64,000 nt of DNA from Candidatus Latescibacterota bacterium (GCA_965198095.1 OZ240239.1:118641-182640), one strand, 5' to 3'. Positions 1-64,000 are shown, counted from the stretch's first letter. A program made the numbers and translations. The notes: generated by a model from the letters alone, not told the origin.

Positions 1-1040
1 AGCTGACCGAGGAGCTCGGCGCCGTCCACGTTGCAGGTCGGGTTGTGGTTGAAATTGAAGATGTAGATGCCGTCCACGCCCTGGTGCCAGGCGTTGCAAG
101 CGGCACCGCGCAGGGCCTCCTTCGACGCGGGCACATACTGCGGACCGGGGCCGATTTGTTCAGACGGACAGGCGTAGACGTGACAGTCCTTGCCTCGGGC
201 CATCTCCACGAACCGGTCGAAGGGCGCGTCCGTGGCCGTATCCCAGTAGACGGAGGGCGAGATGCAGGTCACGGACCGCTGTTCGAGGACCGCCTCCAGG
301 TCCAAACCCATTTCGTGCGTGGCCTCCGGCGTCGCGGCCGTGCGGATCCCGAAACCGAGCGGCCGGCCCCTTTTTTCACCGATTCGGTCGAGCGCCGCGC
401 GGCAGTCGGCCAGGAATTCGGTCAGGATGGGACGGCCTGCTTCGATGTCGGTGAAGCTGACCATCGGCTCCCGCATCAGGTCCAGCTCGAATCCATCCAC
501 GTCATACCGGGTGCAGACCTCTTCCATCAGCCTGATCTTCCAGGCGCGGACCTCGGGCAACGCGTAATTCAGGCCCCGTGGCCCACCGGCCACGCCGTAT
601 CTGCCCTCGGTGCAGTCTTTCGGGATGTTGTATTCCGGGTGGCGCGTTCGCCATTCGGTCAGCCAGGCGAACCGCTCGCCGTGCCGGTCGTTGAAGCGGG
701 TCCCCGGCCAGAACTCCATCCCGGCGTCGTGCGCTGCCTGGACGGCCATCTCCCAGACATCCACGTCCAGGGACCAGAGGTGATGCAGGTTCTCCTGGAC
801 CCGATATTCCTGAAGATTGGTGTAGGTCGTGTTCCTGGGCGGCCTCGCCTCCGGGATCTCCGTCTTGTACCACGGCAGCGCGTCGCCAAGTCCGAACAGG
901 TTGCAGATCACCCGACCCACCTGCGTGCCGATCACCCGCCCGACGGCCTCGTAGACAAACTCATCCGGGCTCATCGGCGGCGCTGTTTGGAGCAGGAAGC
1001 TCCCGTCGTTGTTGTAGATCAGTCGCGGCGCTTCAGACAT
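1..1040 (-). CDS. TIM-barrel glycoside-hydrolase-like protein, subfamily B (N-terminal part; gene runs off the window start)
   Basis: Absent from the ORF track because it has no stop in the window. Reverse complement from ATG 1040-1038 reads MSEAPRLIYNNDGSFLLQTAPPMSPDEFVYEAVGRVIGTQV...YDVDGFELDLMREP...WHQGVDGIYIFNF with no stop down to nt 3. Collinear with the products of 17702-19255 and 19949-21517. Confidence 0.85.
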   Translation of the reverse strand, partial: MSEAPRLIYNNDGSFLLQTAPPMSPDEFVYEAVGRVIGTQVGRVICNLFGLGDALPWYKTEIPEARPPRNTTYTNLQEYRVQENLHHLWSLDVDVWEMAVQAAHDAGMEFWPGTRFNDRHGERFAWLTEWRTRHPEYNIPKDCTEGRYGVAGGPRGLNYALPEVRAWKIRLMEEVCTRYDVDGFELDLMREPMVSFTDIEAGRPILTEFLADCRAALDRIGEKRGRPLGFGIRTAATPEATHEMGLDLEAVLEQRSVTCISPSVYWDTATDAPFDRFVEMARGKDCHVYACPSEQIGPGPQYVPASKEALRGAACNAWHQGVDGIYIFNFNHNPTCNVDGAELLGQ

Positions 1041-1090
1041 CGAGGTTGCAGGCATCTTTCCTCCCGGGCTCTGTTCAGAACGCTGTCGGT

Positions 1091-1912
1091 CTATGCGCCT
1101 CCTGGACCGACCATGGTGTAAGGTGCAGCTTCGTGGATATAGGTGAATTCGATATCGAGAAAGGATCTGTCGAGGTGGTTGTAGAGCGATTCGATCGAGG
1201 CGCACTCACTCACCCCGTGGTTGACGTGGACGAGCCCCATACCCGTGTCGAGGGCATAGCCAGCCATCTCCCACCAGCAGAACTCTGTTGCTACGAAGGC
1301 GTCCGCGCCGTAGCGATCTCTGGCCTCCACCAGACACTCCGGATTGCTGCCCCAGGCGCCGACGTTCGTCGCCAGGCGTTGCACAGGCATATCCGTGCTG
1401 CCCACGACGGCCACGTACTGCTGGCCTAAATCAGCGGTCTTCTCAGCGATCAGAATGCCGATCTCCCCAAGCGTCGTTCCTGCTGCCATCCGGCAGAGGG
1501 CAAAAATCGTTCCCGCCTCGTAGCGTTCGACCGTGTAGTCCGTCAGCCCAAGCGACTTCGGCCACCACTCGCATACGCCCAGCTCTGGATACCGGTCCCA
1601 GAGGTCGTGACACCTGATCGCCGTGATGCCGAGTTCATCCAGGAGCTCACGCTTGGCGTCAGAGCGTGTCCGGTCGAACGATTCCTCGTCGCGATCCTTC
1701 CTCTGCCAGATGATCGGCTCGTGAACGATCACGAGCTGACACTCTTGTTCAGCGGCTTTTCGGATCGCGCGCGTCGTGCCCATCCAGGTCACCGCCGCTT
1801 TCATCACCTCCCGATCGGCAGGCCCGTGTGTGATCCGATCGACCGTGGACTCCGGATCGACCCATCCCTTGCCCATCGCGTGGAGCTGTTGCAGAATCTC
1901 TTTCGCTGTCAA
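1091..1912 (-). CDS. NIF3-family (DUF34 / YbgI-like) dinuclear-metal protein
   Basis: 273 aa. N-terminal VIVHEP and C-terminal DAFVATE...VNHGVSE match the NIF3 metal-ligand pattern (HHP ... TGE ... GHxxSE). Confidence 0.7.
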   Translation of the reverse strand: MTAKEILQQLHAMGKGWVDPESTVDRITHGPADREVMKAAVTWMGTTRAIRKAAEQECQLVIVHEPIIWQRKDRDEESFDRTRSDAKRELLDELGITAIRCHDLWDRYPELGVCEWWPKSLGLTDYTVERYEAGTIFALCRMAAGTTLGEIGILIAEKTADLGQQYVAVVGSTDMPVQRLATNVGAWGSNPECLVEARDRYGADAFVATEFCWWEMAGYALDTGMGLVHVNHGVSECASIESLYNHLDRSFLDIEFTYIHEAAPYTMVGPGGA

Positions 1913-1954
1913 GGCAGAATCCTCGCCAAATGTTGTTGGACCAGCGTGGGACGC

Positions 1955-4158: not shown

Positions 4159-4187
4159 GGTACCCGTGTTTTGGTTGCCCGGTACCC
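4159..4187. repeat. GGTACC-box copy 1 (GGTACCCGTGTTTTGGTTGCCCGGTACCC)
   Basis: Two GGTACC palindromes 22 nt apart. Ends 5 nt after the stop of the 4193-5146 gene and 68 nt before the start of 2970-4091. Confidence 0.8.
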
Positions 4188-4192: not shown

Positions 4193-5146
4193 TCAAAATC
4201 CGGCGCCCTTGTCACAGACGTAGAGAAACGGCTCTCCGGCCAGATACCTTCTCAGATTCTCTTTCAACCCATCGGCCCGTCCTCTCCACAGCCGGTCTGA
4301 CACCGAAGAGACGTGCGCCGTGAGGAGCACGTTCTCCATGTCCCAGAGCGGGTTGTCCGGAGGAAGGGGTTCTTGCGCCGTCACATCCAGCCCCGCGCCT
4401 CGAATCCGACCTGAACGCAGCCCGTCGATCAGCGCGGGCTCGTCCACAATGCCTCCACGGGAAATCACGATGACGTATCCGCCCGCCTTCAGCTTCCCCA
4501 GCTTCTCCCGATCGATCAAACCGCGCGTCTCCGGCGTCAACGGGGCCGTGACGACAAACCAGTCGGAAATCTGAAGCAGATCGTCCAGCCGATCCAGGCC
4601 CCACACCGCCTTGACCTCGGCCGGAGGATCGAACGGCCGGACGTCGACGGCAACCACCTCCATCCCGAATCCGTGTGCGCGGCGAGCCACGGCCCTCCCG
4701 ATGTCTCCCAGGGCCAGGATGCCCATGGTCGCCTCGTTCAACTCCACGAACCGGTTGTCGTAGTGCCGCCAGTCCCAGCGGTGCGCCGCCTGATCGGCCC
4801 AGAGGTCGCGTCCGCGGTGGGCAAGCGTCAGCATGAACAGGAAGACGTGATCGGCCATCGGGTTGGCGTGCGGACCCCGGACGTTCGTGAGCACGACGTC
4901 GCTCTCGACCAGTTCCGGGATGGCGGTCACCCGATCCACCCCGGTCCCCAGGATCTGAACCCACTTCAGTTTTTCGGCCGCCAGGAAAGATTCCCGTGAA
5001 AGCTCTCCAAACAAGGCGTCCGCATCCCGAACCTGCTCGATCTCCTCTTCAGGTGTGGCCGCAGGCACAAAATCGATCTCCGGAAACTCCTCGCGAAGCT
5101 CGCCCAGAAACTTGTCCCGCACGTGGCCGGTGACGACAATCTTCAT
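4193..5146 (-). CDS. D-isomer-specific 2-hydroxyacid dehydrogenase family (NAD-binding)
   Basis: Track ORF 4193-5212 trimmed to MKIVVTGHV at 5146, which has GGGAGGAG 7 nt upstream and lies 1 nt after the upstream stop. Motifs GILALGDIGRAVARRA, ISRGGIVDE and HVSS. Confidence 0.85.
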   Translation of the reverse strand: MKIVVTGHVRDKFLGELREEFPEIDFVPAATPEEEIEQVRDADALFGELSRESFLAAEKLKWVQILGTGVDRVTAIPELVESDVVLTNVRGPHANPMADHVFLFMLTLAHRGRDLWADQAAHRWDWRHYDNRFVELNEATMGILALGDIGRAVARRAHGFGMEVVAVDVRPFDPPAEVKAVWGLDRLDDLLQISDWFVVTAPLTPETRGLIDREKLGKLKAGGYVIVISRGGIVDEPALIDGLRSGRIRGAGLDVTAQEPLPPDNPLWDMENVLLTAHVSSVSDRLWRGRADGLKENLRRYLAGEPFLYVCDKGAGF

Positions 5147-6696: not shown

Positions 6697-7680
6697 CTAT
6701 CCAATCCAGCCCGGTGTCGTGATCGTATCTGCGATCTCGAAGACACGCTTCAGTTCCTCATCGGAGAGTGACGCCACATCACATACCGCCACGTTCTCCT
6801 CGATCTGTCCGCGGGTCTTCGCACCCGCGATCACGCACGACACCCCCGGGTGGTCCAGAACGAACCGGAGCGCCGCCTGCGCCATCGTCCGACCCGGACG
6901 GGCGATAAAGTCGAGTTGAGGAAGCTTCTTCAGCGCGTCGACCGATTCCGGCCGGTTGAATCGCTCGAACCGCACGTCTTCTTTCGTGAGGGTCTTGGCG
7001 TCCGGGCCGTGGTAGTTTCCGCTCAGCCACCCCTTGGCAAGGGGGACTCGAATCAGCGTCCCGATCTCCTGCGCCTTTGCCCAGTGGAGCAGCGCATCGG
7101 CATCCCGCTCGATCAGGTTATAGCCAATCTGCAGGACGTCGATCGGCCCCAAAGCCCGCAGCTTGTCAATGGCCTCCCGATCGTTGATCGAAATCCCGTA
7201 CCATCTCACCTTCCCCTCCCGCTTGAGCGCCTCCAGCGTCTCCATCACCGCCGGCATGGCCCATTCGTGAGGCACGGCGTGGAGCTGATACAGGTCGATC
7301 CAATCTGTTTTCAACCGCTCCAGGCTGCCTTCACACGCCTCACGGATCCGCCTTCGGACCGACGCTTCGTCCACCTGCCCCTCTTCGATCCCCTGATTGG
7401 GCGCAACCTTCGTGGCGATGATCCATTTCTCCCTTCGGCCCTTCAGGGCCCTTCCGGCCAGGACCTCGCTGTGTCCGCCTCCGTAGCCTTCCGCCGAATC
7501 GATCAGGTTCACGCCCAGCTCCTCGGCCCGGTGAAGAAGCGCGATCGACTCCTCGTCATTCGTTCCCGTCCACCCGTAGAACGATCCATCCTCCCGCTTG
7601 CGCAGTCCCGCGATCGGGAAGGCCCCGAGGCCGATCTCCGACACCTGCAGTCCGGTCTTTCCGAATGTCCGATATTTCAT
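6697..7680 (-). CDS. Aldo/keto reductase
   Basis: MKYRTFGKTGLQVSEIGLGA...DSAEGYGGGHSE...YQLH are typical AKR motifs. Start chosen at the canonical MxYR; the track start at 7701 is also possible. Confidence 0.85.
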   Translation of the reverse strand: MKYRTFGKTGLQVSEIGLGAFPIAGLRKREDGSFYGWTGTNDEESIALLHRAEELGVNLIDSAEGYGGGHSEVLAGRALKGRREKWIIATKVAPNQGIEEGQVDEASVRRRIREACEGSLERLKTDWIDLYQLHAVPHEWAMPAVMETLEALKREGKVRWYGISINDREAIDKLRALGPIDVLQIGYNLIERDADALLHWAKAQEIGTLIRVPLAKGWLSGNYHGPDAKTLTKEDVRFERFNRPESVDALKKLPQLDFIARPGRTMAQAALRFVLDHPGVSCVIAGAKTRGQIEENVAVCDVASLSDEELKRVFEIADTITTPGWIG

Positions 7681-7704
7681 ACGCCAGCACTTCGATGACA
7701 TCGG

Positions 7705-9288
7705 TTATCCGCGATTGTCCTCACCTGAACAAGAGATACGCACGTGCACGTTCTTCACGACGATACCCCTGTTGGAAGGGTCCCGGTTGATCATCCTGAT
7801 CCTGTTCGACCCCTTCAGAATCTGCTCCGGCTCGACGCTGAAGCTGACCCATTCGCCATTCAGCGAGCCGCCCGAAACATCGCGGTCGTTCAGCCTCACC
7901 TCCACGCCCTCCGCAACGCTCAGTCCGTCGGCCTGAATGCTGAGCGTCACATCAGGTCTTTGACCCCGCCGATCGCCCGACGGATCCTCGCCGATCGTCA
8001 TGGTCACCGTGAAAGGCCGTGTGGGCTCGAGCTTCGCGGGACATTCCGGGTCCAGCACGGTGGGCAGCTCACAAAAACGAAGGAGATCTCGAATCTCTCG
8101 CCCCAGGAGAAACCGAAAATGCCCGTCCGAGAAATAGTCCTTGTCGAGCCGTGACAGGAAATCGGGGTCCCCCATCTCTCGCCACCCCGAGCTTTCGGGA
8201 TCGTCCGGCTGGCGTCTCTGTCCTCTCATTCCCGGTCGATTGGGGACGAGGTCGAAGTAGTTGAAGGTATAGACCCCGTCGGCGCCCGAGTGCCAGACAT
8301 TCATAGCGCGAGCGCGGAAATTTCTCATCGGAAGGCCGTCCTGAACGTCGGCCGGTCCCTCACGCCGTTTGGACCCGGACCAGCTCAGGCAGGGATAAAC
8401 CGTCACGCCGTGGCTGCGGCCCAGCGCCACCCACGCATCCCAGGGCGCCAACTCCCACTCGCCCGGAATCAGCAGGTCCACGAGCCCCTGTTCCAGCCAC
8501 GCCCTCACGTCCAGGCCGATCGCCTCGCAGCACGAAACCGAAGCGGGAATCCGCACCGCGACGAGGATCGGGCGCCTCCGCTCCAGGCCGATCCGTTCCG
8601 TCATGTCCCGAACCCGGCGAAGCAGGTCGGTCATCACATCCCGCTCCGCCTGCGTGCAGTCCTTCCCGTTCGCGTTGCACCTGAAGTGAGGCGGGTGGCG
8701 CATCCAGTCCATCTCGATCCCGTCCACGTCGTACCGCTTGCAGACATCCTCCTGCATCCCGAACGCTTTCTCCCGGACCTCCGCCTCGTCGTAGGCCGCC
8801 CCGGACCAGAATCCGAAGGCAGGAGGATCCTCGAGAGACCCGAACAGGAGCTGAGGGTTGTCCCCCTTGAACTGAGACCCCAGCATGTGCCACAGCGGGT
8901 AGGCGTCGTGGATGTCGTTCATCCGCATCGACCAGAAGACCTCGATCCCGTTCGCCCTGCAGAAGTCGACCATGATCTCCAGCGGGTCCAGACCGGCCTC
9001 GTGAAACGCCTTCGTCCGGTTCGCCTCGAACACGCCCTCTCTGGAAACGAACGGCTCGGAGACGTCGCTCATATGGGTCGCCATCCCCAGGCCGGCGCTC
9101 GTGCAGTAGAAGATCGAATCCACGTGCGTGCCGAGGAGGGGCGTCGTTCGGTCGGCCAGGAGCGCCTCGCGACTGATATCCTTGTCGCCAAGCCTATACA
9201 TAATAGTATTGCCGTCGTTATTGAAGATCACGCGCCGCCTGCGATGGGTGGCCTGCTCACGTCTCCTTCTGAGTTCGTCGAGTTGCAC
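7705..9288 (-). CDS. TIM-barrel glycoside-hydrolase-like protein, subfamily A
   Basis: 527 aa with a GTG start. VIFNNDGN...GIEVFWSMRMNDIHD...YDVDGIEMDWMRHPPHF...W.SGADGVYTFNYF. Tandem paralog of 9310-10821. No signal peptide. Family assignment is by pattern only. Confidence 0.8.
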   Translation of the reverse strand: MQLDELRRRREQATHRRRRVIFNNDGNTIMYRLGDKDISREALLADRTTPLLGTHVDSIFYCTSAGLGMATHMSDVSEPFVSREGVFEANRTKAFHEAGLDPLEIMVDFCRANGIEVFWSMRMNDIHDAYPLWHMLGSQFKGDNPQLLFGSLEDPPAFGFWSGAAYDEAEVREKAFGMQEDVCKRYDVDGIEMDWMRHPPHFRCNANGKDCTQAERDVMTDLLRRVRDMTERIGLERRRPILVAVRIPASVSCCEAIGLDVRAWLEQGLVDLLIPGEWELAPWDAWVALGRSHGVTVYPCLSWSGSKRREGPADVQDGLPMRNFRARAMNVWHSGADGVYTFNYFDLVPNRPGMRGQRRQPDDPESSGWREMGDPDFLSRLDKDYFSDGHFRFLLGREIRDLLRFCELPTVLDPECPAKLEPTRPFTVTMTIGEDPSGDRRGQRPDVTLSIQADGLSVAEGVEVRLNDRDVSGGSLNGEWVSFSVEPEQILKGSNRIRMINRDPSNRGIVVKNVHVRISCSGEDNRG

Positions 9289-10821: not shown

Positions 10822-10856
10822 ATCGCGAAACTCCTCATCTAACGCGTGCGCGAAAC

Positions 10857-10997
10857 AAATCCCCCCTGCCCCTCCCTCGACTCGCAAGCTCGCTCGGGAC
10901 AGGCCTTTGCTAAAGGGGGGAGACTACTCGTACCGACATACTACCCATCAAGAAACGGAATCCTCCCCCTTTGGAAAAGGGGGACTGAGGGGGATTT
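10857..10997. repeat. 141-nt element bounded by imperfect inverted repeats (AAATCCCCCCTGCCCC ... GGGGACTGAGGGGGATTT), MITE-like
   Basis: Terminal IRs read directly. Internal palindrome CCCCCTTT-GGA-AAAGGGGG (10965-10983). The left half recurs at 19704-19742. Confidence 0.55.
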
Positions 10998-13063: not shown

Positions 13064-13116
13064 TTCAGCTCCCGCTTCCTGCAGCAACTACGTCACCATA
13101 CACTTCAGATGCGCAT

Positions 13117-17630: not shown

Positions 17631-17659
17631 GGTACCCGTGTTTTGCTTTCCCGGTACCC
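17631..17659. repeat. GGTACC-box copy 2 (GGTACCCGTGTTTTGCTTTCCCGGTACCC)
   Basis: Lies 42 nt after the stop at 17702 and 114 nt before the start at 17517. Confidence 0.8.
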
Positions 17660-19913: not shown

Positions 19914-19941
19914 GGTACCCGTGTTTTGCTTTCCCGGTACC
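19914..19941. repeat. GGTACC-box copy 3
   Basis: GGTACCCGTGTTTTGCTTTCCCGGTACC, ending 7 nt after the stop at 19949. Confidence 0.8.
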
Positions 19942-24782: not shown

Positions 24783-24841
24783 CGCCTTATCCTTCGACTT
24801 CGACGCACCCGATCTCTCACCGGGTGCCTGCTCTGTCCGCT

Positions 24842-40838: not shown

Positions 40839-40839
40839 G

Positions 40840-49565: not shown

Positions 49566-49619
49566 TTTTGACTTCCCGGTACCCCGTGTCTTGTTCTCCC
49601 GGAACCCGGTACCCGGTAG
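49566..49619. repeat. GGTACC-box copy 7 (expanded)
   Basis: TTTTGACTTCCCGGTACCCCGTGTCTTGTTCTCCCGGAACCCGGTACCCGGTA, ending 8 nt after the stop at 49627. Confidence 0.7.
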
Positions 49620-53194: not shown

Positions 53195-53237
53195 ACGTCG
53201 CTCCTTTCGCCCCTTGACTCGAAACCCGAAACTGATG

Positions 53238-54773
53238 CTATCCGAACTGTTGCGGAATAATCCCCCCCGTGGCATCGGGCACGACGGAGAGCCAGCGTGC
53301 ATCGTAAAGGGCGCCCTCGGCATCGAAGACCCGTCCGTCGGGAAGCATGTACTGGTTCGGCGTCGTCGGCTTCTGTCCGGATTGGAATTCCGACGACCGG
53401 GCCCTGTCCGCGGCCATCTGCTGGTGGACCCGCTCCCAGCTGAATCCCTCGAAAAGGGCCTCGCGCATCTTCCGACATCGGGTGGCTTGATGGGGGCTTT
53501 CGGCCAGGTTCGTCTCCTCGTCCGGGTCGTTCACCATATCGAACAGCAGCCGGTCTCCCTTCTCGATATCCACGTACTTCCAGTCCCGGCTCCTCACGAC
53601 ACGCATGGCAGCCGCCGCTTCCTGCTTCGCCGTCTGTTTGTAGTTGATCCTCACGCCATAGTGACAATAGCCCGCGGTCACGTACTCCCGGGGCGCTTCC
53701 GCATCCTCAGGGTCCGCCAGCAGGCCGCTGAAGTCCTTTCCGTCCAGCCCTTCCGGAATCGGAAGACCGGCCAGACCGCAGGTCGTCGGATACAGGTCGA
53801 TGAGCGAAATCGGGTGCGGAACCGGGTGATGTCCTTCCCGTATTCCGGGGCCGCGGATCAGAAGCGGGACCCCGATCGAAGGATCGTAGTAGTTGCCCTT
53901 ACCCCAGAGACCGTGCAGGCCGGCCATCTCTCCGTGATCACTCGTGTAGATGACGACCGTATTCTCCAGCAGGCCGGCATCGCCCACACCCTTCAGGAGT
54001 TCGCCGATGCAGTCATCCGCGAAATCCACGCAGGCGTAGTAGCCTTCCCGTCCGCGCCGGGTTTCCTCAGGCGTAAACTCACGCCAGAGACGTCGCGCGA
54101 AAGGCTCCAGCTTCTCCGCAAAGCCGGAGGGCGGATCGATCGGCGGCAGTCGGTCTCGGTAATACCGGATGTAGCGACCCGGGGCCGTAAAGGGACTGTG
54201 AGGCCGGGAATAGGAGGCACACACGAACCAGGGCGTCTCCGGCTCGCGGCTCTGGTGCTCGAGCAAGAGGGCGATTGTCTCCCTCGTGACGACCACGTCC
54301 TGCAGAAGACTCTCGGGGATCTCGGTGATCCCCCCGCTTGTGGCCGAATGATACGAGGGAAACAGGTCGATCGGCTCGGGCTGATGGCTCAAGCCGTGCC
54401 GAAGATCGCCGTAGGGCCGGACCTGGAATCCCTGCATCTGGTCTCGACCGCCGAAGTGCATCTTGCCGACCAGGCCGGTGCGATACCCGTGCGCCGCGAA
54501 GTGGGCCGGCCAGGTTACGTGCTCGGGAAAAATGATCCAATGGTTGCTCCACGCCGCGCATCGGAAATCATCTTTGCCCGTGAGCAGGCACATCCTCGAG
54601 GGGGTGCAGACCGGCGACGCGCAGAAGGCGTTGTCGAACTGGACCGACCGGCCGGCCAGGTCGTCCAGATGCTGCGTGCGGACGTGCTCATCTCCCGAAA
54701 ACCCGGCTACCTTGGGCGCGTGTTCGTCGGTGAGGATAAGGAGAATGTTCGGTTTGTTTGAGTTTCCGCTCAT
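53238..54773 (-). CDS. Sulfatase (Cys-type, formylglycine-dependent), no signal peptide
   Basis: MSGNSNKPNILLILTDEH...CASPVCTPSRMCLLTGK... plus the downstream GKMHFG and TSDHGE motifs. Confidence 0.9.
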   Translation of the reverse strand: MSGNSNKPNILLILTDEHAPKVAGFSGDEHVRTQHLDDLAGRSVQFDNAFCASPVCTPSRMCLLTGKDDFRCAAWSNHWIIFPEHVTWPAHFAAHGYRTGLVGKMHFGGRDQMQGFQVRPYGDLRHGLSHQPEPIDLFPSYHSATSGGITEIPESLLQDVVVTRETIALLLEHQSREPETPWFVCASYSRPHSPFTAPGRYIRYYRDRLPPIDPPSGFAEKLEPFARRLWREFTPEETRRGREGYYACVDFADDCIGELLKGVGDAGLLENTVVIYTSDHGEMAGLHGLWGKGNYYDPSIGVPLLIRGPGIREGHHPVPHPISLIDLYPTTCGLAGLPIPEGLDGKDFSGLLADPEDAEAPREYVTAGYCHYGVRINYKQTAKQEAAAAMRVVRSRDWKYVDIEKGDRLLFDMVNDPDEETNLAESPHQATRCRKMREALFEGFSWERVHQQMAADRARSSEFQSGQKPTTPNQYMLPDGRVFDAEGALYDARWLSVVPDATGGIIPQQFG

Positions 54774-54902: not shown

Positions 54903-55097
54903 TCACTCCTTCTCGCTCAGTTTCCGAACAACGCCTCGTCCGTTCTCAAATAGCGCCCTGCTGCATCCTCGTTGAGATCGATTTCCAATCCCGGTGTCTC
55001 CGGCACCTCCCTCCCTGGCCTGAGTGTTCGTGGGCCGCGAAAGGTAGAGCATGAAGCTTCCGTCGTTGTTGTAGAAAAACCGGGGCGGCTTCGCCAT
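54903..55097 (-). pseudogene. Remnant of a subfamily-B TIM-barrel hydrolase-like gene
   Basis: Retains GGGAGG + ATG + MAKPPRFFYNNDGSFMLY and then loses the frame. An EVPETPGLEIDLNE segment, equivalent to PTEVPGAKGIDME, appears in another frame. The rest of the ~520-aa gene is absent. Confidence 0.7.
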
Positions 55098-57764: not shown

Positions 57765-59270
57765 CTAGCTTTCTTTCGTCTCTCGCCTTTTAACGATCTC
57801 CGACCACGGAACGCCCTTTTCGATGTCCCTGATTTCCCGGGAGAAGGCCTCGTGGTGATAACCCGGCACGGAGGCGAACCTCACCCCTTCGGGCAGCGCT
57901 CCGTGCAGCAGCGGCGGACAAGACCGGTAGCGCAAGAGGTCCATCAGCAGGGCCTCCCGAATCTCCCGGTAGTCGGGGTCGTGCCACCTGTTGTAAATCT
58001 CTCCCGGATCCGTCCGGTGGTCGTAGATCTCGCTCTCGTCCCCTGTCAAATCGAAGGTGATGCGGAAGTCTTCTGTCCGCATCGACATGTGGTGATAGTC
58101 CTTCACGTGTTCGCATAGGACCGCCCGTTTGTTCCACTCCTCCTTGCCCAGAATCGCTGGGACGAGGCTCCGTCCCTGAACCGTGTTCGGCGTCTCAAGG
58201 CCGAGCAGTTCAGTTAGCGTCGGATAGAGATCCACAGACTCCACGAACTTGCCGAACTCCTCTCCCGAAGGCAGCCCACTCGGGTAGCGAATAATCAGGG
58301 GAACCTTGTGAACGCATTCGTAAAACCCGAGGTTCTTCCAGATCAGTCCGTGCTCACCCGCGAAGTCTCCGTGGTCGGAGGCGTAGATGACGATCGTATC
58401 TTCCAGGATGCCCTGGGCCTCCAGCTCCGCAAGCATCCTTCCGATCTGCTCATCGATCAGGGTGACGAGCGCGTAGTAGTAAGCGATACACTGTCTCAGG
58501 TGCGCGTCGTCCCTCGGCCGGTAGGGGTACCAGAGTTCGCCACGCATCGACTGCTGTTGCCGCTCTGACTTGCCCTCAAACGGGTCTTCGGCATTCGCAG
58601 GGACCGTTACCTCATCCGGATCGTAGAGGCGGTCATACGGCTCGGGCACGGTGAGCGGATCGTGAGGCCGTTCGAAACAGACGTAGGCGAAGAACGGCTT
58701 GCCTTTGTCTCGCTCGCGGAGGTATTTCACTGCCTCGTCTCCGCACCAGACCTCCATCGAGTGTTCCAGTGGCAAGGGCGACGTGACCGCGCAGTCGGGG
58801 TGCTGCTTCCATTTGCTCGTATTGTCGTAATCGTCCGCCACCCCTGCGTCAACCAGGCTTCGGAAGTAGTCGCACGTGAGCGGGTCGTCCGGCAGCGCAT
58901 CGGTGTTCGTGCTGAAACAGGTAGTGTCGAACTCTCGTCGGGGCCAGTGCACCCCGATATGTCCCTTTCCGATGAGCGCCGTCTCGTATCCGGCCTGCCT
59001 CAGGGTCGCCGTGATCGGATTCAGGTGGTCTGGCGGCTCATCGATGTTGCCGTGACGCCGATGCCAGTGTTCGTAGATCCCGGTCAGGTAAGAGATGCGC
59101 GATGGGCCGCAGTGCGCGCTGTTGGCGTAGGCCCTGGCGAATCGAATGCCCTCCCGCGCGAGCCGGTCCATGTGGGGCGTCTGGAGCAGAGGCTCGCCCG
59201 CGCAGGACATACAGCGCGCATTATGCTGGTCGCTCAGTACAAAGAGGATGTTGGGCTGTCCGGAAGCCAT
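57765..59270 (-). CDS. Sulfatase (Cys-type), no signal peptide
   Basis: MASGQPNILFVLSDQH...NSAHCGPSRISYLTG...GKGHIG...ASDHGD. Confidence 0.9.
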   Translation of the reverse strand: MASGQPNILFVLSDQHNARCMSCAGEPLLQTPHMDRLAREGIRFARAYANSAHCGPSRISYLTGIYEHWHRRHGNIDEPPDHLNPITATLRQAGYETALIGKGHIGVHWPRREFDTTCFSTNTDALPDDPLTCDYFRSLVDAGVADDYDNTSKWKQHPDCAVTSPLPLEHSMEVWCGDEAVKYLRERDKGKPFFAYVCFERPHDPLTVPEPYDRLYDPDEVTVPANAEDPFEGKSERQQQSMRGELWYPYRPRDDAHLRQCIAYYYALVTLIDEQIGRMLAELEAQGILEDTIVIYASDHGDFAGEHGLIWKNLGFYECVHKVPLIIRYPSGLPSGEEFGKFVESVDLYPTLTELLGLETPNTVQGRSLVPAILGKEEWNKRAVLCEHVKDYHHMSMRTEDFRITFDLTGDESEIYDHRTDPGEIYNRWHDPDYREIREALLMDLLRYRSCPPLLHGALPEGVRFASVPGYHHEAFSREIRDIEKGVPWSEIVKRRETKES

Positions 59271-59355: not shown

Positions 59356-59805
59356 TCATCGCTCGACTTGGACCCTCCTTGACGTGCCTTTTCTCGGAGT
59401 GACACGGACGACGCCCCGGTCCGCATCCACCACCACCCGATCCCCCGTCGCGATGGTCGAAAACGGGTCACGCTCCAGGTCCGTCATCATCGGGATGCCG
59501 TTCACGATGCACCCGAGGGCGGCCAGGCTGTCGACCTCCACGTTCACGAACGCCACCGGGGCATTTCCTTCCAGCCGGGCCAGGTTCAGCGTCATCGGCG
59601 TCCCGGAAGATCCCTTGGTCGAGCGGATCACGAGCACCCGATCCCTCAGTGATTCACCCTCCAGCGGATGTCCGGAGCCGATCACTTTCCCGGTAATCGC
59701 ATCCACCTCGCCCCAGAAAGAGAGCGTGGCGTCCGCCACCAGCGCCGTCCCCTCGGCCCTTCCCATCACCACCCCTCTGCCCTTGATTTCGATCGTCTCA
59801 GCCAT
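59356..59805 (-). CDS. Aconitase X swivel-domain subunit (DUF126)
   Basis: GRAEGTALVADATLSFWGEVDAITGKVIG..HPLEGESLRDRVLVIRSTKGSSG...APVAFVN. ATG 59805 overlaps the large-subunit stop by 8 nt (ATGGCTGA). Confidence 0.8.
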   Translation of the reverse strand: MAETIEIKGRGVVMGRAEGTALVADATLSFWGEVDAITGKVIGSGHPLEGESLRDRVLVIRSTKGSSGTPMTLNLARLEGNAPVAFVNVEVDSLAALGCIVNGIPMMTDLERDPFSTIATGDRVVVDADRGVVRVTPRKGTSRRVQVER

Positions 59806-61051
59806 CTCCCATCCACTTCCCGGCAACGGCCGCCCGAATGCACGGTTCGGTCTCCGCGATAATCATTTCTGCCCCCAGCATCCCCCGGGCATAATGCGCC
59901 TGTTTGAACCCGTGGGTTACGATGCGCTTGGCCGGGATCCGCATGTTCGTTGGGCAAGTGTCGCACAGGATCCGGCCGCCCGCAGCCTCGATCGCCTCCG
60001 TGTATCCCATCGCGTCCGCGTTCCCCTTGGTTCCCCGGGCCGTATCCACCCAGAGCCTCACCCCCTGGGCGATCTTTTTCCCCCTCAGTAGGCCAGCAAT
60101 CTCAGAAATTTCCTGGATAGACGCGTGAGGACAGCCAAGGATCACGGCGTCGATTTCGTCTCCGGTGTGGGTCCGAAGCGATTCATAGGTCTCCCTCAAG
60201 GCGGCATCGTCAAACACCGTCTCGGGCTCGGGCACATCGCCCTGAAACGCGGCCTCCAGTGTGGGAGCCTCGGGCGTCACGCCCGCGATGTGACACATCG
60301 TCACGCCCCCTGACGTCGCGAGCGCGGCGCACAGCTGCTTCGCCTCATCCTGTGACGGGCGTTCCACGCCGTTGAACACCGGAATACCCAAACCAGCCAA
60401 CTTTCCCGAATAGTAACCGAGCGCCCCCCAGTCCGTCGGGCTGTCCAGGTCTGCGGTCACGTCGATCCGCAGCGTCCCCTTCCGGTTCTCGTCCAGTAGG
60501 ACACCGAACTCGGGTACCAGTCCTAGAAGCGACGCCGCGATCGCGCTCTCCGTCCCGTGCCGCACGGTTCTCGCCCCCAGGATCGAGTTGGCGTAGACCA
60601 CCGCTGAAGACTCGGTCCAGGCGCAGACCTCCCCCTTCAGCGGAACGTTTCCGACGAGATACGGCGCGCACGTGAACGTCGGGATGAATCCGGCCTCAGC
60701 CGCCATGTCTGCCAGTTCCTTCTGCATCCGCACCTGCTCCGGATCGTTTTCAGGCACATCCTGATGGCCCTCCAGTGTGACGAAAGCGGCGTGGACTGTG
60801 CAGGTGCATCCCGGGTGCGTCTGGTGCGCGCAGGCCTCCTTCAGATCTTCCATATACCGGTCGAGTGTTTCCCGGGAAGCCCCTCTGGCCATCAGGTTGG
60901 GAACCGGCAGCAGCGCGTGCGTGTTCTCCACGCGCACCAGCCGCTGCGCACCCATCGCCTCGCCCCACGCGACCAGCCAGCGCATGCACTTGGCCAGGTA
61001 GTCGCCCTTGGCGCCGTCCAGAATGGCCTGCTGTTCTTCAGTAAGATCCAT
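59798..61051 (-). CDS. Aconitase X catalytic subunit (DUF521); the family includes cis-3-hydroxy-L-proline dehydratase
   Basis: 417 aa with N-terminus LTEEQQAILDGAKGDYLAKCMRWLVAWGEAMGA..LV.V...H and conserved Cys positions. Paired with the DUF126 gene. Confidence 0.7.
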   Translation of the reverse strand: MDLTEEQQAILDGAKGDYLAKCMRWLVAWGEAMGAQRLVRVENTHALLPVPNLMARGASRETLDRYMEDLKEACAHQTHPGCTCTVHAAFVTLEGHQDVPENDPEQVRMQKELADMAAEAGFIPTFTCAPYLVGNVPLKGEVCAWTESSAVVYANSILGARTVRHGTESAIAASLLGLVPEFGVLLDENRKGTLRIDVTADLDSPTDWGALGYYSGKLAGLGIPVFNGVERPSQDEAKQLCAALATSGGVTMCHIAGVTPEAPTLEAAFQGDVPEPETVFDDAALRETYESLRTHTGDEIDAVILGCPHASIQEISEIAGLLRGKKIAQGVRLWVDTARGTKGNADAMGYTEAIEAAGGRILCDTCPTNMRIPAKRIVTHGFKQAHYARGMLGAEMIIAETEPCIRAAVAGKWMGDG

Positions 61052-61191: not shown

Positions 61192-62712
61192 TTACTGTTT
61201 AGGAATCTGCAACGCATAAAGCTTCGCGTTGTCCATGGTAAAACGAACTCTGACCGGGAGATGCGCTCCGATATCCGAGTTTCCCCTCCACGTGAACGTA
61301 TGCGCCAGGCTGTCCCCCTTGAAGGTATCACAGTCCTCTCTGGAAAAGCCATCAACAACGTATCCATCCGAGGTTAGAAGTTCGGCGTCAATATAACCTC
61401 CGGACGCAACGGCGTTGACGACAAGTCGATTGCCCGGCGATTGAAGCGGTTTCGTCAACAGTGTAGGCGGGTAATTATTCTTGGTGCTTCTGTGCGAATT
61501 GTCGATCGCGTCGATGGAGACGAATCCGTCCAGCCGCAGCTTGGCCAGCCCGAGCTTTGTGTTACCACCCGCGTCGTGGCGGTTGTCCGTCCCGGTATAG
61601 TAAACCCAGTGCTCATCCCCGACCCGCATCGGGGCCTGTAACATTGCGCACATGCCCCACTCCCAGCTTCCATCCGGACCGAGGGGCAGAAAAGGCCCGG
61701 TTCTCAGCCGTTCCCAGTGGAAACTGTCCCTGCTGTGCGAAAGGTACATATCCATCGTGTCGTGCGCCGTGTGATGTGTCCTCACGAAGCCGAGGTAGAT
61801 GCTCTCGTAGTAGAACGCCTCCATGCCGTAGAAGTCCGTATCGAACGGATCCAGCGCGTCCTTGTCGATCACGGGCGCAGACATCGACCAGTGGATCAGG
61901 TCGTTGCTCTGCATCCTCTGGATCGATCGCTCCGTCCTGTGCACCAGCATCGGACTTGGATAGGGATTTCGACAAAATCCAAGGTACTTCTTGCTCACGG
62001 GATCATACATGATACTAAGCGTCTCGTCTCCTCGCCCGGCACTGATCGGCCCCGGGTCCGGCGTCCAGTGGATCCCGTCGGGGGAATGGAAGACCGCCGG
62101 CTGTCCTCCTCCGTGACCCATCTTGTAGCGTCTGGACGGATCGGCCTCAGGATCCTTCACGACGTATTGACACTTGGTCTCGTAAACGATGTTCGTGTCG
62201 CTGCCATCGGTGTGTTTCACCACGCCCAGCGGCGGCGTTTCCCACTTGATGCCGTCCTCCGAGGTGGCATACAGGATCCTATAGTTATAGCTTCGCACGG
62301 GCACACCTTCTACCGTCAGGCCGTTGTACCACATCTTCCAGATCCCGTCTTCTTCGTCGTAGAGGATCCTTGCCGGCCACGGCGCAGACCTGCCCTCCCA
62401 GTCGTGCGACCGCTGCATGATCGGATTGCCTTCGTACCGCACGGGCTGATTCACCGTCCGCGTCACGAAGGCGGTCGCCCTGAGCAGATGCCCTGGTACG
62501 TCCGCTTCGATCTTGTCGGTTGCCTCGCTCCATCCGTCCAGGTTCGTTCGCTCCTCGGCTGACGCCGGTATCCGCGGCTGTACCCATCGGGCCGTCTCCG
62601 CGAGACGAGGAGAAATCCAGCGCGTCGTCTCGATAATGTGGTCGTCCACAAAAAGCTGCTTGCGTGTACCGACATCAACGATCAGTTCTGATCCTGGAAC
62701 CTGTAACCTCAT
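61192..62712 (-). CDS. Five-bladed beta-propeller glycoside-hydrolase-like protein with a C-terminal beta-sandwich
   Basis: 506 aa. AAGGAGG lies 7 nt upstream. Repeated S.DG..W blades. LAKLRLDGFVSIDA. C-terminus ...VRVRFTMDNAKLYALQIPKQ. Confidence 0.8.
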   Translation of the reverse strand: MRLQVPGSELIVDVGTRKQLFVDDHIIETTRWISPRLAETARWVQPRIPASAEERTNLDGWSEATDKIEADVPGHLLRATAFVTRTVNQPVRYEGNPIMQRSHDWEGRSAPWPARILYDEEDGIWKMWYNGLTVEGVPVRSYNYRILYATSEDGIKWETPPLGVVKHTDGSDTNIVYETKCQYVVKDPEADPSRRYKMGHGGGQPAVFHSPDGIHWTPDPGPISAGRGDETLSIMYDPVSKKYLGFCRNPYPSPMLVHRTERSIQRMQSNDLIHWSMSAPVIDKDALDPFDTDFYGMEAFYYESIYLGFVRTHHTAHDTMDMYLSHSRDSFHWERLRTGPFLPLGPDGSWEWGMCAMLQAPMRVGDEHWVYYTGTDNRHDAGGNTKLGLAKLRLDGFVSIDAIDNSHRSTKNNYPPTLLTKPLQSPGNRLVVNAVASGGYIDAELLTSDGYVVDGFSREDCDTFKGDSLAHTFTWRGNSDIGAHLPVRVRFTMDNAKLYALQIPKQ

Positions 62713-62753
62713 TGATAAGCCTCCTTATCTCGATCCACGATTAGCGGGTTTGC

Positions 62754-62787
62754 GGTACCCGGTACCCGTATTTGACTTCCCAGTACC
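62754..62787. repeat. GGTACC-box copy 8 (GGTACCCGGTACCCGTATTTGACTTCCCAGTACCC)
   Basis: The left arm is duplicated and the right arm reads AGTACC. Ends 6 nt after the stop at 62794 and 42 nt before the start at 62712. Confidence 0.7.
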
Positions 62788-62793
62788 CGGTCT

Positions 62794-64000
62794 CTACTCT
62801 TGCGGAATTTGCAGGGCGAAGAGTCTCGCGTTATCCATGTAAAACCGAACTCTGATGGGAATGCAGCCACCTATATCCGCGTTTCCTTTCCAGGTGAACG
62901 TATGCGCCAGACTGTCCCCGTTGAACGTATCGCAGTCTTCCCTGGAATGCCCGTCGATCACGTTTCCATCTGTTGTCAACAACTCGGCGTCGAGATATCC
63001 CCCGGAAGCGACCGCGTTCACGACGAGCCGGTTTCCCGGCGATTGTAGCGGTTTGGTCAACAGCGTCGGCGGGTAGTTCCTTCCCGCGCGTCGGTGCGCG
63101 TTGTCGATCGCGTCGATCGACACGAACCCGTCCAGGCGAAGCTTCGCCAGCCCCAGACCCGCAGCATCACCATCCCCACCATCGTGCAGTCCCGCTACGC
63201 CCGTATAGTAGAACCAGAGCTCATCACCGACCCTCATCGGGGCCTGAAACATCTGGGCCATGCCCCATTCCCAACTCCCGTCTGATCCTCGAGGCAGAAA
63301 AGGTCCGGTCCGTATCCGCTCCCAGTGGAAACTGTCTCTGCTGTGGGACAGCCACACCTCCATGTGATCAGGGCCCGTTCGGTGAATGTTCACAAATCCC
63401 AGATACATACTCTCATAGTACATCCCCTGCAAACCGTAAAAGTCGGTGTCGAAAGGATCCAGCGGGTCCTTGTCGATGATGGGGGCCGATATCGACCAGT
63501 GGATCAGATCATTGCTCTGCAGCCTCTGGGTCGATCGCTCCGTCCGGTGGGTCAGCCACGGTTCAGGATAGACGTTTCGGCAGAACCCGAGATATTTCTT
63601 GCTCACGGGGTCATACATGATGGACAGGGTCTCGTCCCCTCGGTCGCTCTGGGTCGGACCCGGGTCGGGCGTCCAGTGGATTCCGTCGGGGGAATGGTAG
63701 ACCGAGGCATCGATCGGGGGGTCCCAGTGGAGCAACGGACCGTGACCCATCTTGTAACGCCTGGAAGGGTCTGCGTCTTTGTCCTTCACAACGTACTGAC
63801 TCTTGCATTCGTTCACGATATTCGTGTCGTTCCCATCTCTGTCTTTCGCGACCCCCAGCGTCGGTCTTTCCCACGTGATGCCGTCTTCAGACGTGGCATA
63901 CATCGTGTTGTACACGATCTTCCGTTCAGGGAACTCGTCGACGGTCACGCCGAGGTACCACATCTTCCAGATCCCGTCTTCCTCATCGTACATAATGTCC
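62794..64000 (-). CDS. Beta-propeller glycoside-hydrolase-like protein (tandem paralog; N-terminus beyond the window end)
   Basis: The frame stays open upstream of the track Met (..DIMYDEEDGIWKMWY aligns with internal ..RILYDEEDGIWKMWY of 61192-62712). Collinear to the C-terminus ...IRVRFYMDNARLFALQIPQE. Confidence 0.85.
   Translation of the reverse strand, partial: DIMYDEEDGIWKMWYLGVTVDEFPERKIVYNTMYATSEDGITWERPTLGVAKDRDGNDTNIVNECKSQYVVKDKDADPSRRYKMGHGPLLHWDPPIDASVYHSPDGIHWTPDPGPTQSDRGDETLSIMYDPVSKKYLGFCRNVYPEPWLTHRTERSTQRLQSNDLIHWSISAPIIDKDPLDPFDTDFYGLQGMYYESMYLGFVNIHRTGPDHMEVWLSHSRDSFHWERIRTGPFLPRGSDGSWEWGMAQMFQAPMRVGDELWFYYTGVAGLHDGGDGDAAGLGLAKLRLDGFVSIDAIDNAHRRAGRNYPPTLLTKPLQSPGNRLVVNAVASGGYLDAELLTTDGNVIDGHSREDCDTFNGDSLAHTFTWKGNADIGGCIPIRVRFYMDNARLFALQIPQE

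Follow-up and report, generated by a model that had tools for sequence, protein, structure and literature searches.

A one-strand gene array of Candidatus Latescibacterota as a probable SusD-less polysaccharide-utilisation island with cytoplasmic GH156-like enzymes

Candidatus Latescibacterota belongs to the FCB superphylum. A stretch of DNA of 64,000 nt from one of its genomes (GCA_965198095.1 OZ240239.1:118641-182640), referred to here as the window, carries 45 genes that all lie on the minus strand, including expanded families of glycosidase- and sulfatase-like proteins and a TIM-barrel family marked by an NNDG motif. As neither a regulator nor an inner-membrane transporter was found among the products, the locus raises the question of how such an array could obtain, process and respond to a substrate, or whether its genes form a system at all. 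In our reading, it is probably a SusD-less, regulator-less variant of a polysaccharide-utilisation island, which processes imported oligomers in the cytoplasm. The array would have grown as genes for exo-acting glycan enzymes of the cytoplasm were duplicated in tandem and lost, and it now has five GH156-like, two GH36-like, four propeller, one GH127 and one BNR protein and two Cys-type sulfatases. The oligomers, probably sulfated, probably bearing 2-keto-3-deoxy or nonulosonic acids, and perhaps glycopeptides, would be captured and passed through the outer membrane by an exported module encoded in the array itself, would cross the inner membrane via an OPT-fold DUF6785/6784 secondary transporter, as synteny and fold suggest, and would be trimmed and desulfated in the cytoplasm, the enzyme activities being predicted. 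About 23 oxidoreductases, dehydratases, aldolases, a dipeptidase and an aminotransferase would then consume the freed monomers, and shared control might be exerted through a 28-nt intergenic element bound by a factor encoded elsewhere.

The NNDG proteins are present in the window as five copies in two families and a remnant, as follows (open reading frame is abbreviated to ORF).

3..1055 (ORF to 1205), minus strand: GH156-like family B copy 3; 3' end cut by the window start, probable ATG at about 1055, about 50% identical to 17702-19255
7705..9288, minus strand: GH156-like family A copy 1; 63% identical to 9310-10887, catalytic set kept
9310..10887 (probable start about 10818), minus strand: GH156-like family A copy 2; PDB 6RZD at E=2.3e-21, catalytic set kept
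17702..19255, minus strand: GH156-like family B copy 1; PDB 6RZD at E=2.2e-23
19949..21517, minus strand: GH156-like family B copy 2; 65.5% identical to copy 1, catalytic set kept
about 55020..55097, minus strand: GH156-like family B remnant; N-terminal 26 aa, MAKPPRFFYNNDGSF..., from tblastn and the ORF listing

Families A and B are about 26% identical to each other in an all-against-all BLASTP. EnvSia156 (PDB 6RZD), the founding inverting exo-alpha-sialidase of GH156 (PMC6254351; PMC6811678), is the one solved structure matched by single TIM-barrel sequences, with E-values of about 1e-21 to 1e-23, and a family profile, for which the five window copies were combined with 24 database homologs, matched it at E=1.2e-83 (profile 12-495 against chain 4-489). 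A search with the N-terminal 122 aa of one GH156-like protein did not recover EnvSia156, and the family profile did. In EnvSia156, a dyad of Asp14 as general base and His134 as acid and a carboxylate-binding triad of Arg129, Arg202 and Asn346 have been defined structurally (PMC6811678), and conservation of the triad has been used as a criterion for GH156 sialidases (bioRxiv 2022.06.28.497753). The invariant Asp of NNDG aligns with Asp14, and Asp14, Arg129, Asp132, His134, Arg202, Arg246 and Asn346 are kept in all five window copies; in the aligned homologs the dyad is likewise retained (Asp14 in 29/29, His134 in 28/29). Judged from these alignments, the NNDG TIM barrels belong to GH156 as one of its distant branches. 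The contacts with the glycerol chain are less conserved in GH156 than the catalytic and carboxylate residues, and Trp164 and Phe203 are among its conserved +1-pocket aromatics (PMC6811678). Gly stands at the position of Asn15 in every window copy, and Phe203 is replaced by His or Glu; in a pairwise alignment, Trp164 is replaced by Lys. Because of these changes, the sugar specificity may differ from that of EnvSia156. With 2,776 clusters at 50% identity (E<=1e-30), the GH156-like superfamily is a large one, and about 80 of 115 close family representatives have no signal-peptide-like N-terminus. EnvSia156 also has no leader, since its catalytic Asp is residue 14.

Related loci, labelled L001 to L010, were used for comparison. 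Two window proteins and a 51-mer, looked up as exact sequences, gave no match. One relative, a metagenome-assembled genome of Candidatus Latescibacterota with a 5.66-Mb chromosome (OZ252100.1), carries orthologs with 88-96% identity, on one strand and in an unchanged order. The other glycosidase-like proteins and the sulfatases of the window are the following.

11039..13087, minus strand: GH36-like (Melibiase) copy 1; Pfam PF02065, 94 bits, 83% identical to copy 2
13313..15337, minus strand: GH36-like (Melibiase) copy 2; Pfam PF02065, 93 bits
44409..46340, minus strand: GH127 family (beta-L-arabinofuranosidase / aceric-acid-hydrolase); three Pfam domains, NCBIfam aceric acid hydrolase 348 bits, below the cut-off, no signal peptide
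47266..48330, minus strand: BNR_2 sialidase-fold six-bladed propeller; Pfam 75 bits, no signal peptide
51668..53323 (true start probably about 53190), minus strand: five-bladed propeller, divergent copy; 31% identical to 61192-62712
61192..62712, minus strand: five-bladed beta-propeller with a C-terminal beta-sandwich; GH130/GH43/GH32/GalNAc-deacetylase-like fold
62794..64000, minus strand: propeller paralog; 73% identical to 61192-62712, 5' end cut by the window end, ortholog at L006 7916-9445 (92.7%)
21769..24243, minus strand: 824-aa protein; C-terminal ~330 aa related to the propeller family, no signal peptide, no Pfam or NCBIfam match
53238..54773, minus strand: Cys-type S1 sulfatase, CTPSR motif; Pfam PF00884 146 bits, closest to choline-O-sulfatases (PDB 6FNY, E=1.9e-52)
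57765..59270, minus strand: Cys-type S1 sulfatase, CGPSR motif; Pfam PF00884 167 bits, closest to the GlcNAc-6-O-sulfatase BT4656 (PDB 5G2V, E=1.1e-57)

GH156, GH36 and GH127 are recognisable families, and all are exo-acting. The GH36-like protein at 11039-13087 is 83% identical to its neighbour and 82% to the neighbour's ortholog, and 75% to its own positional ortholog (window 11039-15337 compared with L002 16735-21018), a pattern that suggests gene conversion or independent duplication. The proteins of the propeller family have five-bladed, GH130/GH43/GH32-like folds. In Pfam searches at E up to 5, no match was obtained for the propeller family, the 824-aa protein or a 244-aa protein listed below; the PF22847 label precomputed on some homologs was not reproduced, and weak GH32_N matches alone were seen. 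The 824-aa protein has 2+2 tandem paralogs in the relative. Both sulfatases, which are 28% identical (BLASTP), carry the C/S-x-P-x-R sequence by which formylglycine sulfatases of the S1 family are recognised.

Where these enzymes act was judged from their N-termini, with a hydrophobic-core heuristic for signal peptides, for which each in-frame ATG, GTG or TTG among the first 90 codons was taken as a possible start. Signal peptides were flagged in four consecutive genes only (24842-25888, 25929-28334, 28315-31422 and 31981-33414), and at no possible start on the hydrolase-like proteins or either Cys-type sulfatase. In-frame stops lie 0-30 codons upstream of the enzyme starts and therefore leave no room for signal peptides, and the catalytic motifs begin close to the N-terminus, the NNDG of the GH156-like proteins near residues 10-12 and the core of the sulfatases at residue 8. 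As the hydrolases and sulfatases have no leader, they are most simply read as acting in the cytoplasm on imported material. The preliminary description of this DNA had stated that none of these proteins shows a signal peptide, which holds at every alternative start, and had deduced intracellular desulfation and depolymerisation. The deduction stands in part: the missing leaders and the exo-acting families agree with it, but the sulfatase at 53238-54773 is closest to cytoplasmic choline-O-sulfatases, so that for this protein glycan desulfation is tentative. Searches of all products with Pfam and NCBIfam also bore out the claim that the window encodes no regulator, inner-membrane transporter or sulfatase maturase: no regulator, sigma/anti-sigma pair, two-component system, ABC or MFS transporter, formylglycine-generating enzyme or radical-SAM maturase was detected, and at most one or two hydrophobic 19-mers were counted in any window protein.

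The four genes with signal peptides make up an exported module.

24842..25888, minus strand: PorV/PorQ-family (FadL-like) outer-membrane barrel; NCBIfam NF033709, 131 bits against a cut-off of 90, signal peptide, C-terminal Phe
25929..28280 (ORF to 28334), minus strand: exported protein of about 783-801 aa; signal peptide, weak CHU_C match, type IX C-terminal-domain-like tail by eye
28315..31422, minus strand: 1035-aa TonB-dependent-receptor-like outer-membrane protein; Pfam PF13620 (CarboxypepD_reg) 72 bits, signal peptide, C-terminal Phe
31981..33258 (ORF to 33414), minus strand: DNRLRE-domain lipoprotein with lipobox IVSC; NCBIfam NF033679, 34 bits

The 1035-aa protein is laid out as a CarboxypepD_reg domain, a plug-like segment and a large C-terminal region, which is probably a barrel, and it matches the SusC/RagA N-terminus with 58 bits (model positions 2-165) and the FepA plug with 21 bits. 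The 801-aa protein occupies the place that SusD usually has in a polysaccharide-utilisation locus (PUL); it has no SusD/RagB match in Pfam or NCBIfam, where a weak CHU_C tail was the only match, and its last ~80 residues look like a type IX secretion C-terminal domain. The module appears to be a separate transcription unit, given the terminator hairpins after the 24842 and 34419 genes and the partial copy after the 31981 gene (see below). Hence the earlier statement that uptake and control must lie elsewhere or in uncharacterised elements is to be narrowed: it fits the lack of a local regulator and of an inner-membrane importer, but an outer-membrane module (24842-33414) is present in the window.

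A series of three genes, for a CarboxypepD_reg TonB-like protein (about 1035-1130 aa), an exported protein of about 800 aa and a PorV/FadL-like barrel of about 335-348 aa, is seen at window 24842-31422, twice in L008 (1-6326 and 11923-18624) and once in L010 (1-5111), a locus of Candidatus Handelsmanbacteria. The PorV-family match was obtained for the window protein only, its L010 counterpart having a weak UPF0164 match, and the ~800-aa genes of L008 and L010 were equated with the 801-aa protein by position and size. In both L008 and L010 the series occurs with a DUF6785/6784 gene, and it may be an alternative to SusC/SusD.

How oligomers would pass the inner membrane is suggested by the relatives. 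Upstream of the ortholog of the last window gene (62794-64000), the relative has, on the same strand, an AP_endonuc_2 gene, a gene for a 240-aa protein and then one for a DUF6785 protein of 576-586 aa, beyond which lie two further 824-aa paralogs. The DUF6785 protein has 9-10 hydrophobic helices by hydropathy count, and more in an AlphaFold2 (AF2) model. A DUF6785 gene is thus, by synteny, probably to be expected about 2.5-4 kb beyond position 64000, and on the basis of this neighbour we read the 'missing' inner-membrane transporter as probably an effect of the window edge. The preliminary description had proposed a check of the flanks for transporters and regulators; made in the relatives, it gave the DUF6785 protein by the last-gene ortholog, and no regulator in L001-L010. 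DUF6785/6784 genes lie at L003 4703-6688, L006 3736-5496, L007 7957-9945, L008 7467-9461, L009 1132-3087 and 8001-10001, and L010 8001-9989, with several paralogs per genome. They are directly upstream of GH156-like triplets in L003 (a second OZ252100.1 locus) and L007 (from a 4.29-Mb relative), and near propeller genes in L006 (about 2.4 kb upstream, with two genes between) and L008 (about 0.5 kb upstream). In L008 the gene stands between the two copies of the TonB-like/~800-aa/~335-aa triad; in L010 the triad is followed by the DUF6785/6784 gene and by amidase and peptidase genes.

The AF2 model of a DUF6785/6784 protein, made from an alignment of 36 homologs, has a pLDDT of 88 and a pTM of 0.89. 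In a Foldseek search of the PDB with this model, only barley YS1 was significant (7WST/7WSR; E=9e-8 and 3e-7, TM-score 0.58-0.68, about 660-670 columns), the next matches having E>0.03. Barley Yellow Stripe 1 is a proton-coupled importer of the OPT family. In Pfam, the DUF6785/6784 proteins match DUF6785 and DUF6784 only and not OPT, and we found no paper mentioning DUF6785. From the fold and the conserved gene neighbourhood, an OPT-fold inner-membrane importer is the most economical reading of the modelled protein.

The best candidate for common control is a 28-nt element, which on the coding strand reads GGTACCGGGAAAGCAAAACACGGGTACC (GGTACC-N16-GGTACC, two palindromes 22 nt apart centre to centre).

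4159..4186, 17631..17658, 19914..19941, 21723..21750 and 35324..35351, minus strand: copies of the 28-nt element, intergenic
49578..49613, minus strand: variant of the element with a longer spacer, intergenic
36518-36532 and 62754-62775: degenerate copies of the element

Five copies are counted both at two or fewer and at three or fewer mismatches, against 0.00 expected, and there are 6-8 copies when the variant and degenerate ones are counted. Units spread over 45 kb of the window share the element. Every copy lies between genes, starting 7-57 nt (in the window, 14-57 nt) behind a stop codon and 49-659 nt ahead of the next start; the element is near-invariant in relatives whose proteins are only about 60-66% identical, and it can iterate at a 22-nt period. 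Copies also occur in the relatives (L002 11562; L003 4505; L006 3628, 7784 and 11528; L008 7277, 9469 and 21234). Rfam gave no match to the element, and its RNA hairpins were compared with shuffled sequences, giving z of -0.07 to -1.7 for five copies and +0.56 for the sixth. Because the folding is no better than that of shuffles, it was not called a structured RNA. It may instead act in cis on several units, as an operator to which a factor encoded elsewhere binds or as an RNA signal recognised by its sequence. Protein regulators were found neither in the window, nor in about 100 kb of related loci (L001-L008), nor in the DUF6785 loci L009 and L010.

Whether the array is one unit or many can be seen from its spacing and its terminators. 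The preliminary description had noted many short gaps and overlaps; two overlaps of 4 nt and some dozen gaps of at most 51 nt occur, but also 20 gaps of more than 100 nt (maximum 1004 nt). The hairpin GCCGCCCGGAGC-N4-GCTCCGGGCGGC with a T-rich tail is reused just after three genes, once as a partial copy (31943-31955, minus strand, after the 31981 gene). The two full copies are:

24754..24783, minus strand: terminator hairpin with a 13-bp stem, 11 of the pairs G-C, just after the PorV-like gene
34351..34380, minus strand: terminator hairpin of near-identical sequence, just after the SDR gene 34419-35216

The reused hairpin is a predicted intrinsic terminator that bounds both the exported module and neighbouring genes. 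Across the window, terminator-like matches show no overall enrichment, and only two or three strong hairpins are convincing. A single (super-)operon was rejected in view of the 20 long gaps, the terminators at 24754-24783 and 34351-34380 and arrays of repetitive extragenic palindromic (REP) elements; about 15-20 short transcription units are predicted instead. Matches to sigma-70 promoters are at or below the shuffled expectation in the window, no tRNA gene was found in it, and Rfam at gathering thresholds gave no riboswitch or other RNA there.

The REP elements and the associated gene are as follows.

41889..42323, minus strand: REP-associated tyrosine transposase (RAYT); NCBIfam NF047646, 87 bits against a cut-off of 80
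33404..34242, no strand assigned: REP-like array; 54-nt units within 179/233-nt periods
42353..42971, no strand assigned: REP array flanking the RAYT gene; 125-nt period x 4.9

The 18-nt REP core has 17 matches against 0.16 expected, in long intergenic gaps and clustered on both sides of the RAYT gene (19611, 33578-34239, 41757, 42369-42949 and 61094-61148). These elements explain the tandem arrays of 54, 125, 179 and 233 nt and the spurious ORF 33107-33481. At the position of the 17702-21517 pair the relative has three family-B genes, and it has two 824-aa genes where the window has one; as the paralog content differs in this way, duplication and loss are taken to be ongoing. ISL3-/IS30-type transposase genes lie between the relative's GH156-like paralogs (L001/L002 7059-9380 and 21181-end; L003 20560-21546), and the window has a 693-nt gap with a REP unit where the relative carries transposases. 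At 54774-55214 the window has the family-B remnant, and L006 19292-21521 has genes for a dihydrodipicolinate-synthase (DHDPS, NanA-family), a PALP and a Cons_hypoth698 protein; it looks as if the window recently lost a candidate keto-acid lyase by rearrangement or deletion. A gene for a 125-aa 23S_rRNA_IVP/Avd-like protein stands between the propeller genes at L006 9539-9916, where the window has 81 nt.

The strand bias itself is real. The window has a G+C content of about 61% and a negative GC skew of the plus strand throughout, and the ORF tiling path is wholly minus-strand by codon-position G+C (GC1 about 0.63, GC2 about 0.45, GC3 about 0.78), as the preliminary description had it for all 45 genes. 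This count, with a coding fraction of 0.88, leaves out ORFs 33107-33481, which is built of tandem repeats, and 54946-55419, which has a GC3 of 0.49 and sits over a gene remnant; neither is a gene. A plus-strand call of a crude caller at 50756-53260 was rejected because GC1 exceeds GC3, an antisense signature that plus-strand ORFs show in general. The sole small ORF in the long gaps with coding-like composition has 60 codons (24317-24499, minus strand; GC 0.67/0.50/0.77) and is located upstream of the 824-aa gene, in a gap of 598 nt. If orientation were independent from gene to gene, 45 genes would share a strand with a chance of about 6e-14 (p=0.5) or 3e-6 (p=0.75). The anchor's strand is, however, common to 59 of the 60 called genes in four related Latescibacterota loci, so that the one-strand run is a property of the region and clade and not specific to the window; long one-strand arrays seem to be a habit of these genomes. 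The coding strand has more G than C both at third codon positions (+0.055) and between genes (+0.071), from which it is probably the leading strand of replication.

In composition, every paralog family described earlier was recovered by all-against-all BLASTP, but to call the array built from glycan enzymes was an overstatement, since about 16 glycosidase- or sulfatase-like genes stand against about 23 for small-molecule enzymes. The latter, together with an unassigned gene, are listed here (SDR, short-chain dehydrogenase/reductase; SHMT, serine hydroxymethyltransferase; PLP, pyridoxal phosphate).

1091..1912, minus strand: NIF3/DUF34 family; Pfam PF01784, 64 bits
1955..2947, minus strand: M19 membrane-dipeptidase family, no signal peptide; Pfam PF01244, 302 bits
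2970..4091, minus strand: enolase superfamily (MR/MLE), muconate-cycloisomerase/epimerase-like; Pfam, NCBIfam best 249 bits, below the cut-off
4193..5146, minus strand: D-2-hydroxyacid dehydrogenase family; Pfam PF02826, 178 bits
5148..6458, minus strand: SHMT-like PLP enzyme; Pfam PF00464, NCBIfam 304 bits against a cut-off of 335
6697..7701, minus strand: aldo-keto reductase; Pfam PF00248, 201 bits
15596..16783, minus strand: PhyH Fe/2-oxoglutarate dioxygenase-like; Pfam PF05721
16846..17517, minus strand: isochorismatase-family hydrolase; Pfam PF00857
34419..35216, minus strand: SDR oxidoreductase copy 1; Pfam 230 bits
35358..36335, minus strand: PhyH dioxygenase-like; Pfam 72 bits
36548..38164, minus strand: thiamine-diphosphate enzyme, acetolactate-synthase-like; Pfam, NCBIfam 505 bits against a cut-off of 571
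38168..38956, minus strand: SDR oxidoreductase copy 2; Pfam, 40% identical to copy 1
38953..39885, minus strand: fumarylacetoacetate-hydrolase (FAH) family; Pfam 197 bits, 4-nt overlap with the next gene
39882..40886, minus strand: 3-hydroxyacyl-CoA-dehydrogenase family; Pfam 183 bits
40840..41604, minus strand: cyclase/arylformamidase family; Pfam 133 bits
43187..44212, minus strand: Fe-ADH_2/glycerol-dehydrogenase-like; Pfam 60 bits
46359..47240, minus strand: HpcH/HpaI class II pyruvate aldolase family; Pfam 56 bits
48368..49474, minus strand: enolase superfamily, acid-sugar-dehydratase-like; Pfam, NCBIfam talarate/galactarate dehydratase 247 bits, below the cut-off
49627..50547, minus strand: class IV (branched-chain / D-amino-acid) aminotransferase; Pfam 126 bits
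50783..51622, minus strand: PhyH dioxygenase; Pfam 127 bits
55215..55949, minus strand: 244-aa conserved protein; no Pfam, NCBIfam or PDB match, 88% identical ortholog in L006
56095..56985, minus strand: xylose-isomerase-like TIM barrel (AP_endonuc_2); Pfam 55 bits
57037..57747, minus strand: D-lyxose/D-mannose-isomerase-family cupin; Pfam 272 bits, NCBIfam 222 bits against a cut-off of 350
59356..59826, minus strand: AcnX small (swivel) subunit; Pfam 87 bits
59798..61051, minus strand: AcnX large subunit (cis-3-hydroxy-L-proline-dehydratase family); Pfam 408 bits, NCBIfam 247 bits, below the cut-off

The enolase-superfamily pair is 26% identical, and the three PhyH proteins have the Pfam family alone in common. 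No catabolic enzyme of the window reaches an NCBIfam equivalog cut-off, and a detailed pathway reconstruction was rejected for this reason. NanA (DHDPS family), NanK and NanE are absent from the 45 products by Pfam, and a canonical nan (sialic-acid) cluster was therefore rejected; a DHDPS-family gene is present in the relatives' loci L006 and L007. The gene for the ~240-aa protein, which has no detectable family, always adjoins an AP_endonuc_2 gene (window 55215-55949 and 56095-56985), and the relative has two paralogous pairs of this kind (L006 6046-7776 and 17287-19039).

Several observations weigh against the reading of the locus as a SusD-less island. The genes may be unrelated operons that merely share an orientation, and every catabolic enzyme falls below its equivalog cut-off. 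In the GH156-like proteins the contacts with the glycerol chain are altered (N15->G, W164 lost), and the window has no NanA, NanK or NanE, so that the substrate may be something other than sialic acid proper. The TonB-receptor call on the 1035-aa protein rests on its N-terminal ~260 residues; as the protein has no Pfam Plug or barrel match, and PDB matches to the N-terminal domain only, the call as a TonB-dependent transporter is tentative, though relatives' proteins with the same N-terminal domain and position carry weak or faint Plug matches. The DUF6785 gene lies outside the window and was deduced from a relative that differs by indels (insertion sequence (IS) elements, Avd-like and DHDPS/PALP genes), and the substrates of the OPT family are peptides and metal chelates, not glycans. 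For the 28-nt element, the RNA hairpin does not exceed shuffled sequence in stability.

Three other explanations were weighed against these facts. The array may be no functional system, strong local strand bias, probably due to a leading-strand position, and repeated tandem duplication having aligned unrelated small operons of glycan, amino-acid and organic-acid breakdown, with the missing regulator and transporter a sampling effect of 64 kb; we regard this as possible but rather doubtful. It would suit the 20 long gaps, the REP arrays and RAYT gene inside the array, the strong terminators after the 34419 and 24842 genes and the IS elements within the relative's homologous region; the 59/60 co-directional genes of the clade's other loci make orientation functionally little informative, and the thiamine-diphosphate, 3-hydroxyacyl-CoA-dehydrogenase, cyclase and SHMT-like enzymes have no evident link to glycans. 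However, the gene order is conserved with a relative at 88-96% identity, several genomes have these enzyme families next to DUF6785 and TonB-like modules, and a near-invariant intergenic element across 45 kb argues for common control. That the enzymes are exported after all, through mis-called starts, Tat or a non-classical route, and that the locus is a conventional periplasmic or surface one, seems very improbable. Start codons are predictions, to be sure, and type IX components are present (the PorV-like barrel and the C-terminal-domain-like tail), but with in-frame stops 0-30 codons upstream no alternative start gives a hydrophobic leader, and catalytic residues begin at about 12 (GH156-like) or 8-16 (sulfatases). 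The type IX tail was seen by eye on the 801-aa protein only, a view that left out the C-termini of the others, and type IX cargo requires a Sec leader in any case.

The third explanation concerns the substrate and is compatible with the architecture proposed here: the GH156-like paralogs would not be sialidases but would cleave glycosides of 2-keto-3-deoxynononic acid (KDN), 3-deoxy-D-manno-octulosonic acid (Kdo), 3-deoxy-D-lyxo-heptulosaric acid (Dha) or a bacterial nonulosonic acid, the products being split by the HpcH aldolase (46359-47240) and mannose converted by the 57037-57747 protein. We give this somewhat less than an even chance. It draws on the triad and dyad being kept while N15 and W164 are not, on the accommodation of KDN by EnvSia156 (PMC6811678), on the lack of NanA, NanK and NanE, on the presence of the aldolase and the lyxose/mannose-isomerase-family protein, and on the best NCBIfam match of the GH127 protein, aceric acid hydrolase, a rhamnogalacturonan-II enzyme. 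These assignments are, however, at the family level and below equivalog cut-offs, a DHDPS/NanA-family gene is present in the same neighbourhood of the relative, and sialic-acid catabolism without GH33 in Latescibacteria (PMC4454575) fits a true sialidase role. In view of the same altered contacts, absent nan genes and accompanying enzymes, KDN, Kdo or other keto-acid sugars and sialic acid are equally possible as substrates.

With the SusD-less island retained as the preferred reading, a wider claim can be put forward tentatively, and it is one that we consider rather unlikely. Latescibacterota and neighbouring FCB candidate phyla, Handelsmanbacteria among them, may share an undescribed, SusD-independent uptake architecture, in which a TonB-like barrel, a type IX-anchored binding protein of about 800 aa and a PorV/FadL-like barrel would be combined with an OPT-fold importer, cytoplasmic exo-enzymes including a GH156 branch for keto-acid sugars, and coordination, in place of local regulators, through a GGTACC-N16-GGTACC site that recurs from one transcription unit to the next. 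If the reading holds, an uncultured, widespread phylum dismantles acidic or sulfated glycans or glycopeptides inside the cell and not at its surface, and a SusD-less outer-membrane uptake triad recurs across candidate phyla. The OPT-fold importer would be the first functional hypothesis for DUF6785/DUF6784, and the impression of an array without transporters would be due in part to where the window was cut.

Comparison with known systems places the locus as follows. It shares with the SusC/SusD PULs of Bacteroidota an FCB host, a CarboxypepD_reg domain with a SusC/RagA-like plug start, an exported accessory protein and co-directional enzymes. Unlike these, it has no SusD/RagB, in place of which stand the ~800-aa type IX-tailed protein and the PorV/FadL-like barrel; its enzymes are predicted to be cytoplasmic rather than periplasmic or surface-bound; it has no hybrid two-component, SusR or extracytoplasmic-function (ECF) sigma/anti-sigma regulator; and it is a much larger array, in which amino-acid and organic-acid enzymes are interspersed. 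The GH156-like proteins resemble EnvSia156 in full-length homology, the (beta/alpha)8 core, Asp14/His134, Arg129/Arg202/Asn346, Arg246 and the lack of a signal peptide, and differ in being about 25-30% identical to it, in having Gly for Asn15, in not keeping Trp164 and Phe203, and in forming five tandem or near-tandem paralogs in one locus. The model of the relatives' DUF6785/6784 protein has the fold of the OPT family (YS1) but no sequence-level OPT match, and its gene is outside the window. As in REP/RAYT elements elsewhere, the 41889-42323 protein passes the RAYT equivalog cut-off and REP arrays flank it; here, however, the element is a passenger in a catabolic array and accounts for several of the long gaps. 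Finally, single-cell genomes of Latescibacteria were found to have sialic-acid catabolic genes but no GH33 sialidase (Youssef 2015, PMC4454575). The same study noted GH127, sulfatases and an M19 dipeptidase and predicted the degradation of algal glycans and glycoproteins; predating GH156, it assumed extracellular desulfation and uptake of monomers by classical symporters and ABC systems (PMC4454575). The present locus departs from that model in its cytoplasmic enzymes and its likely TonB-like and OPT-fold importers, and its GH156-like proteins are, if our reading holds, a candidate for the 'missing sialidase' of Latescibacteria.

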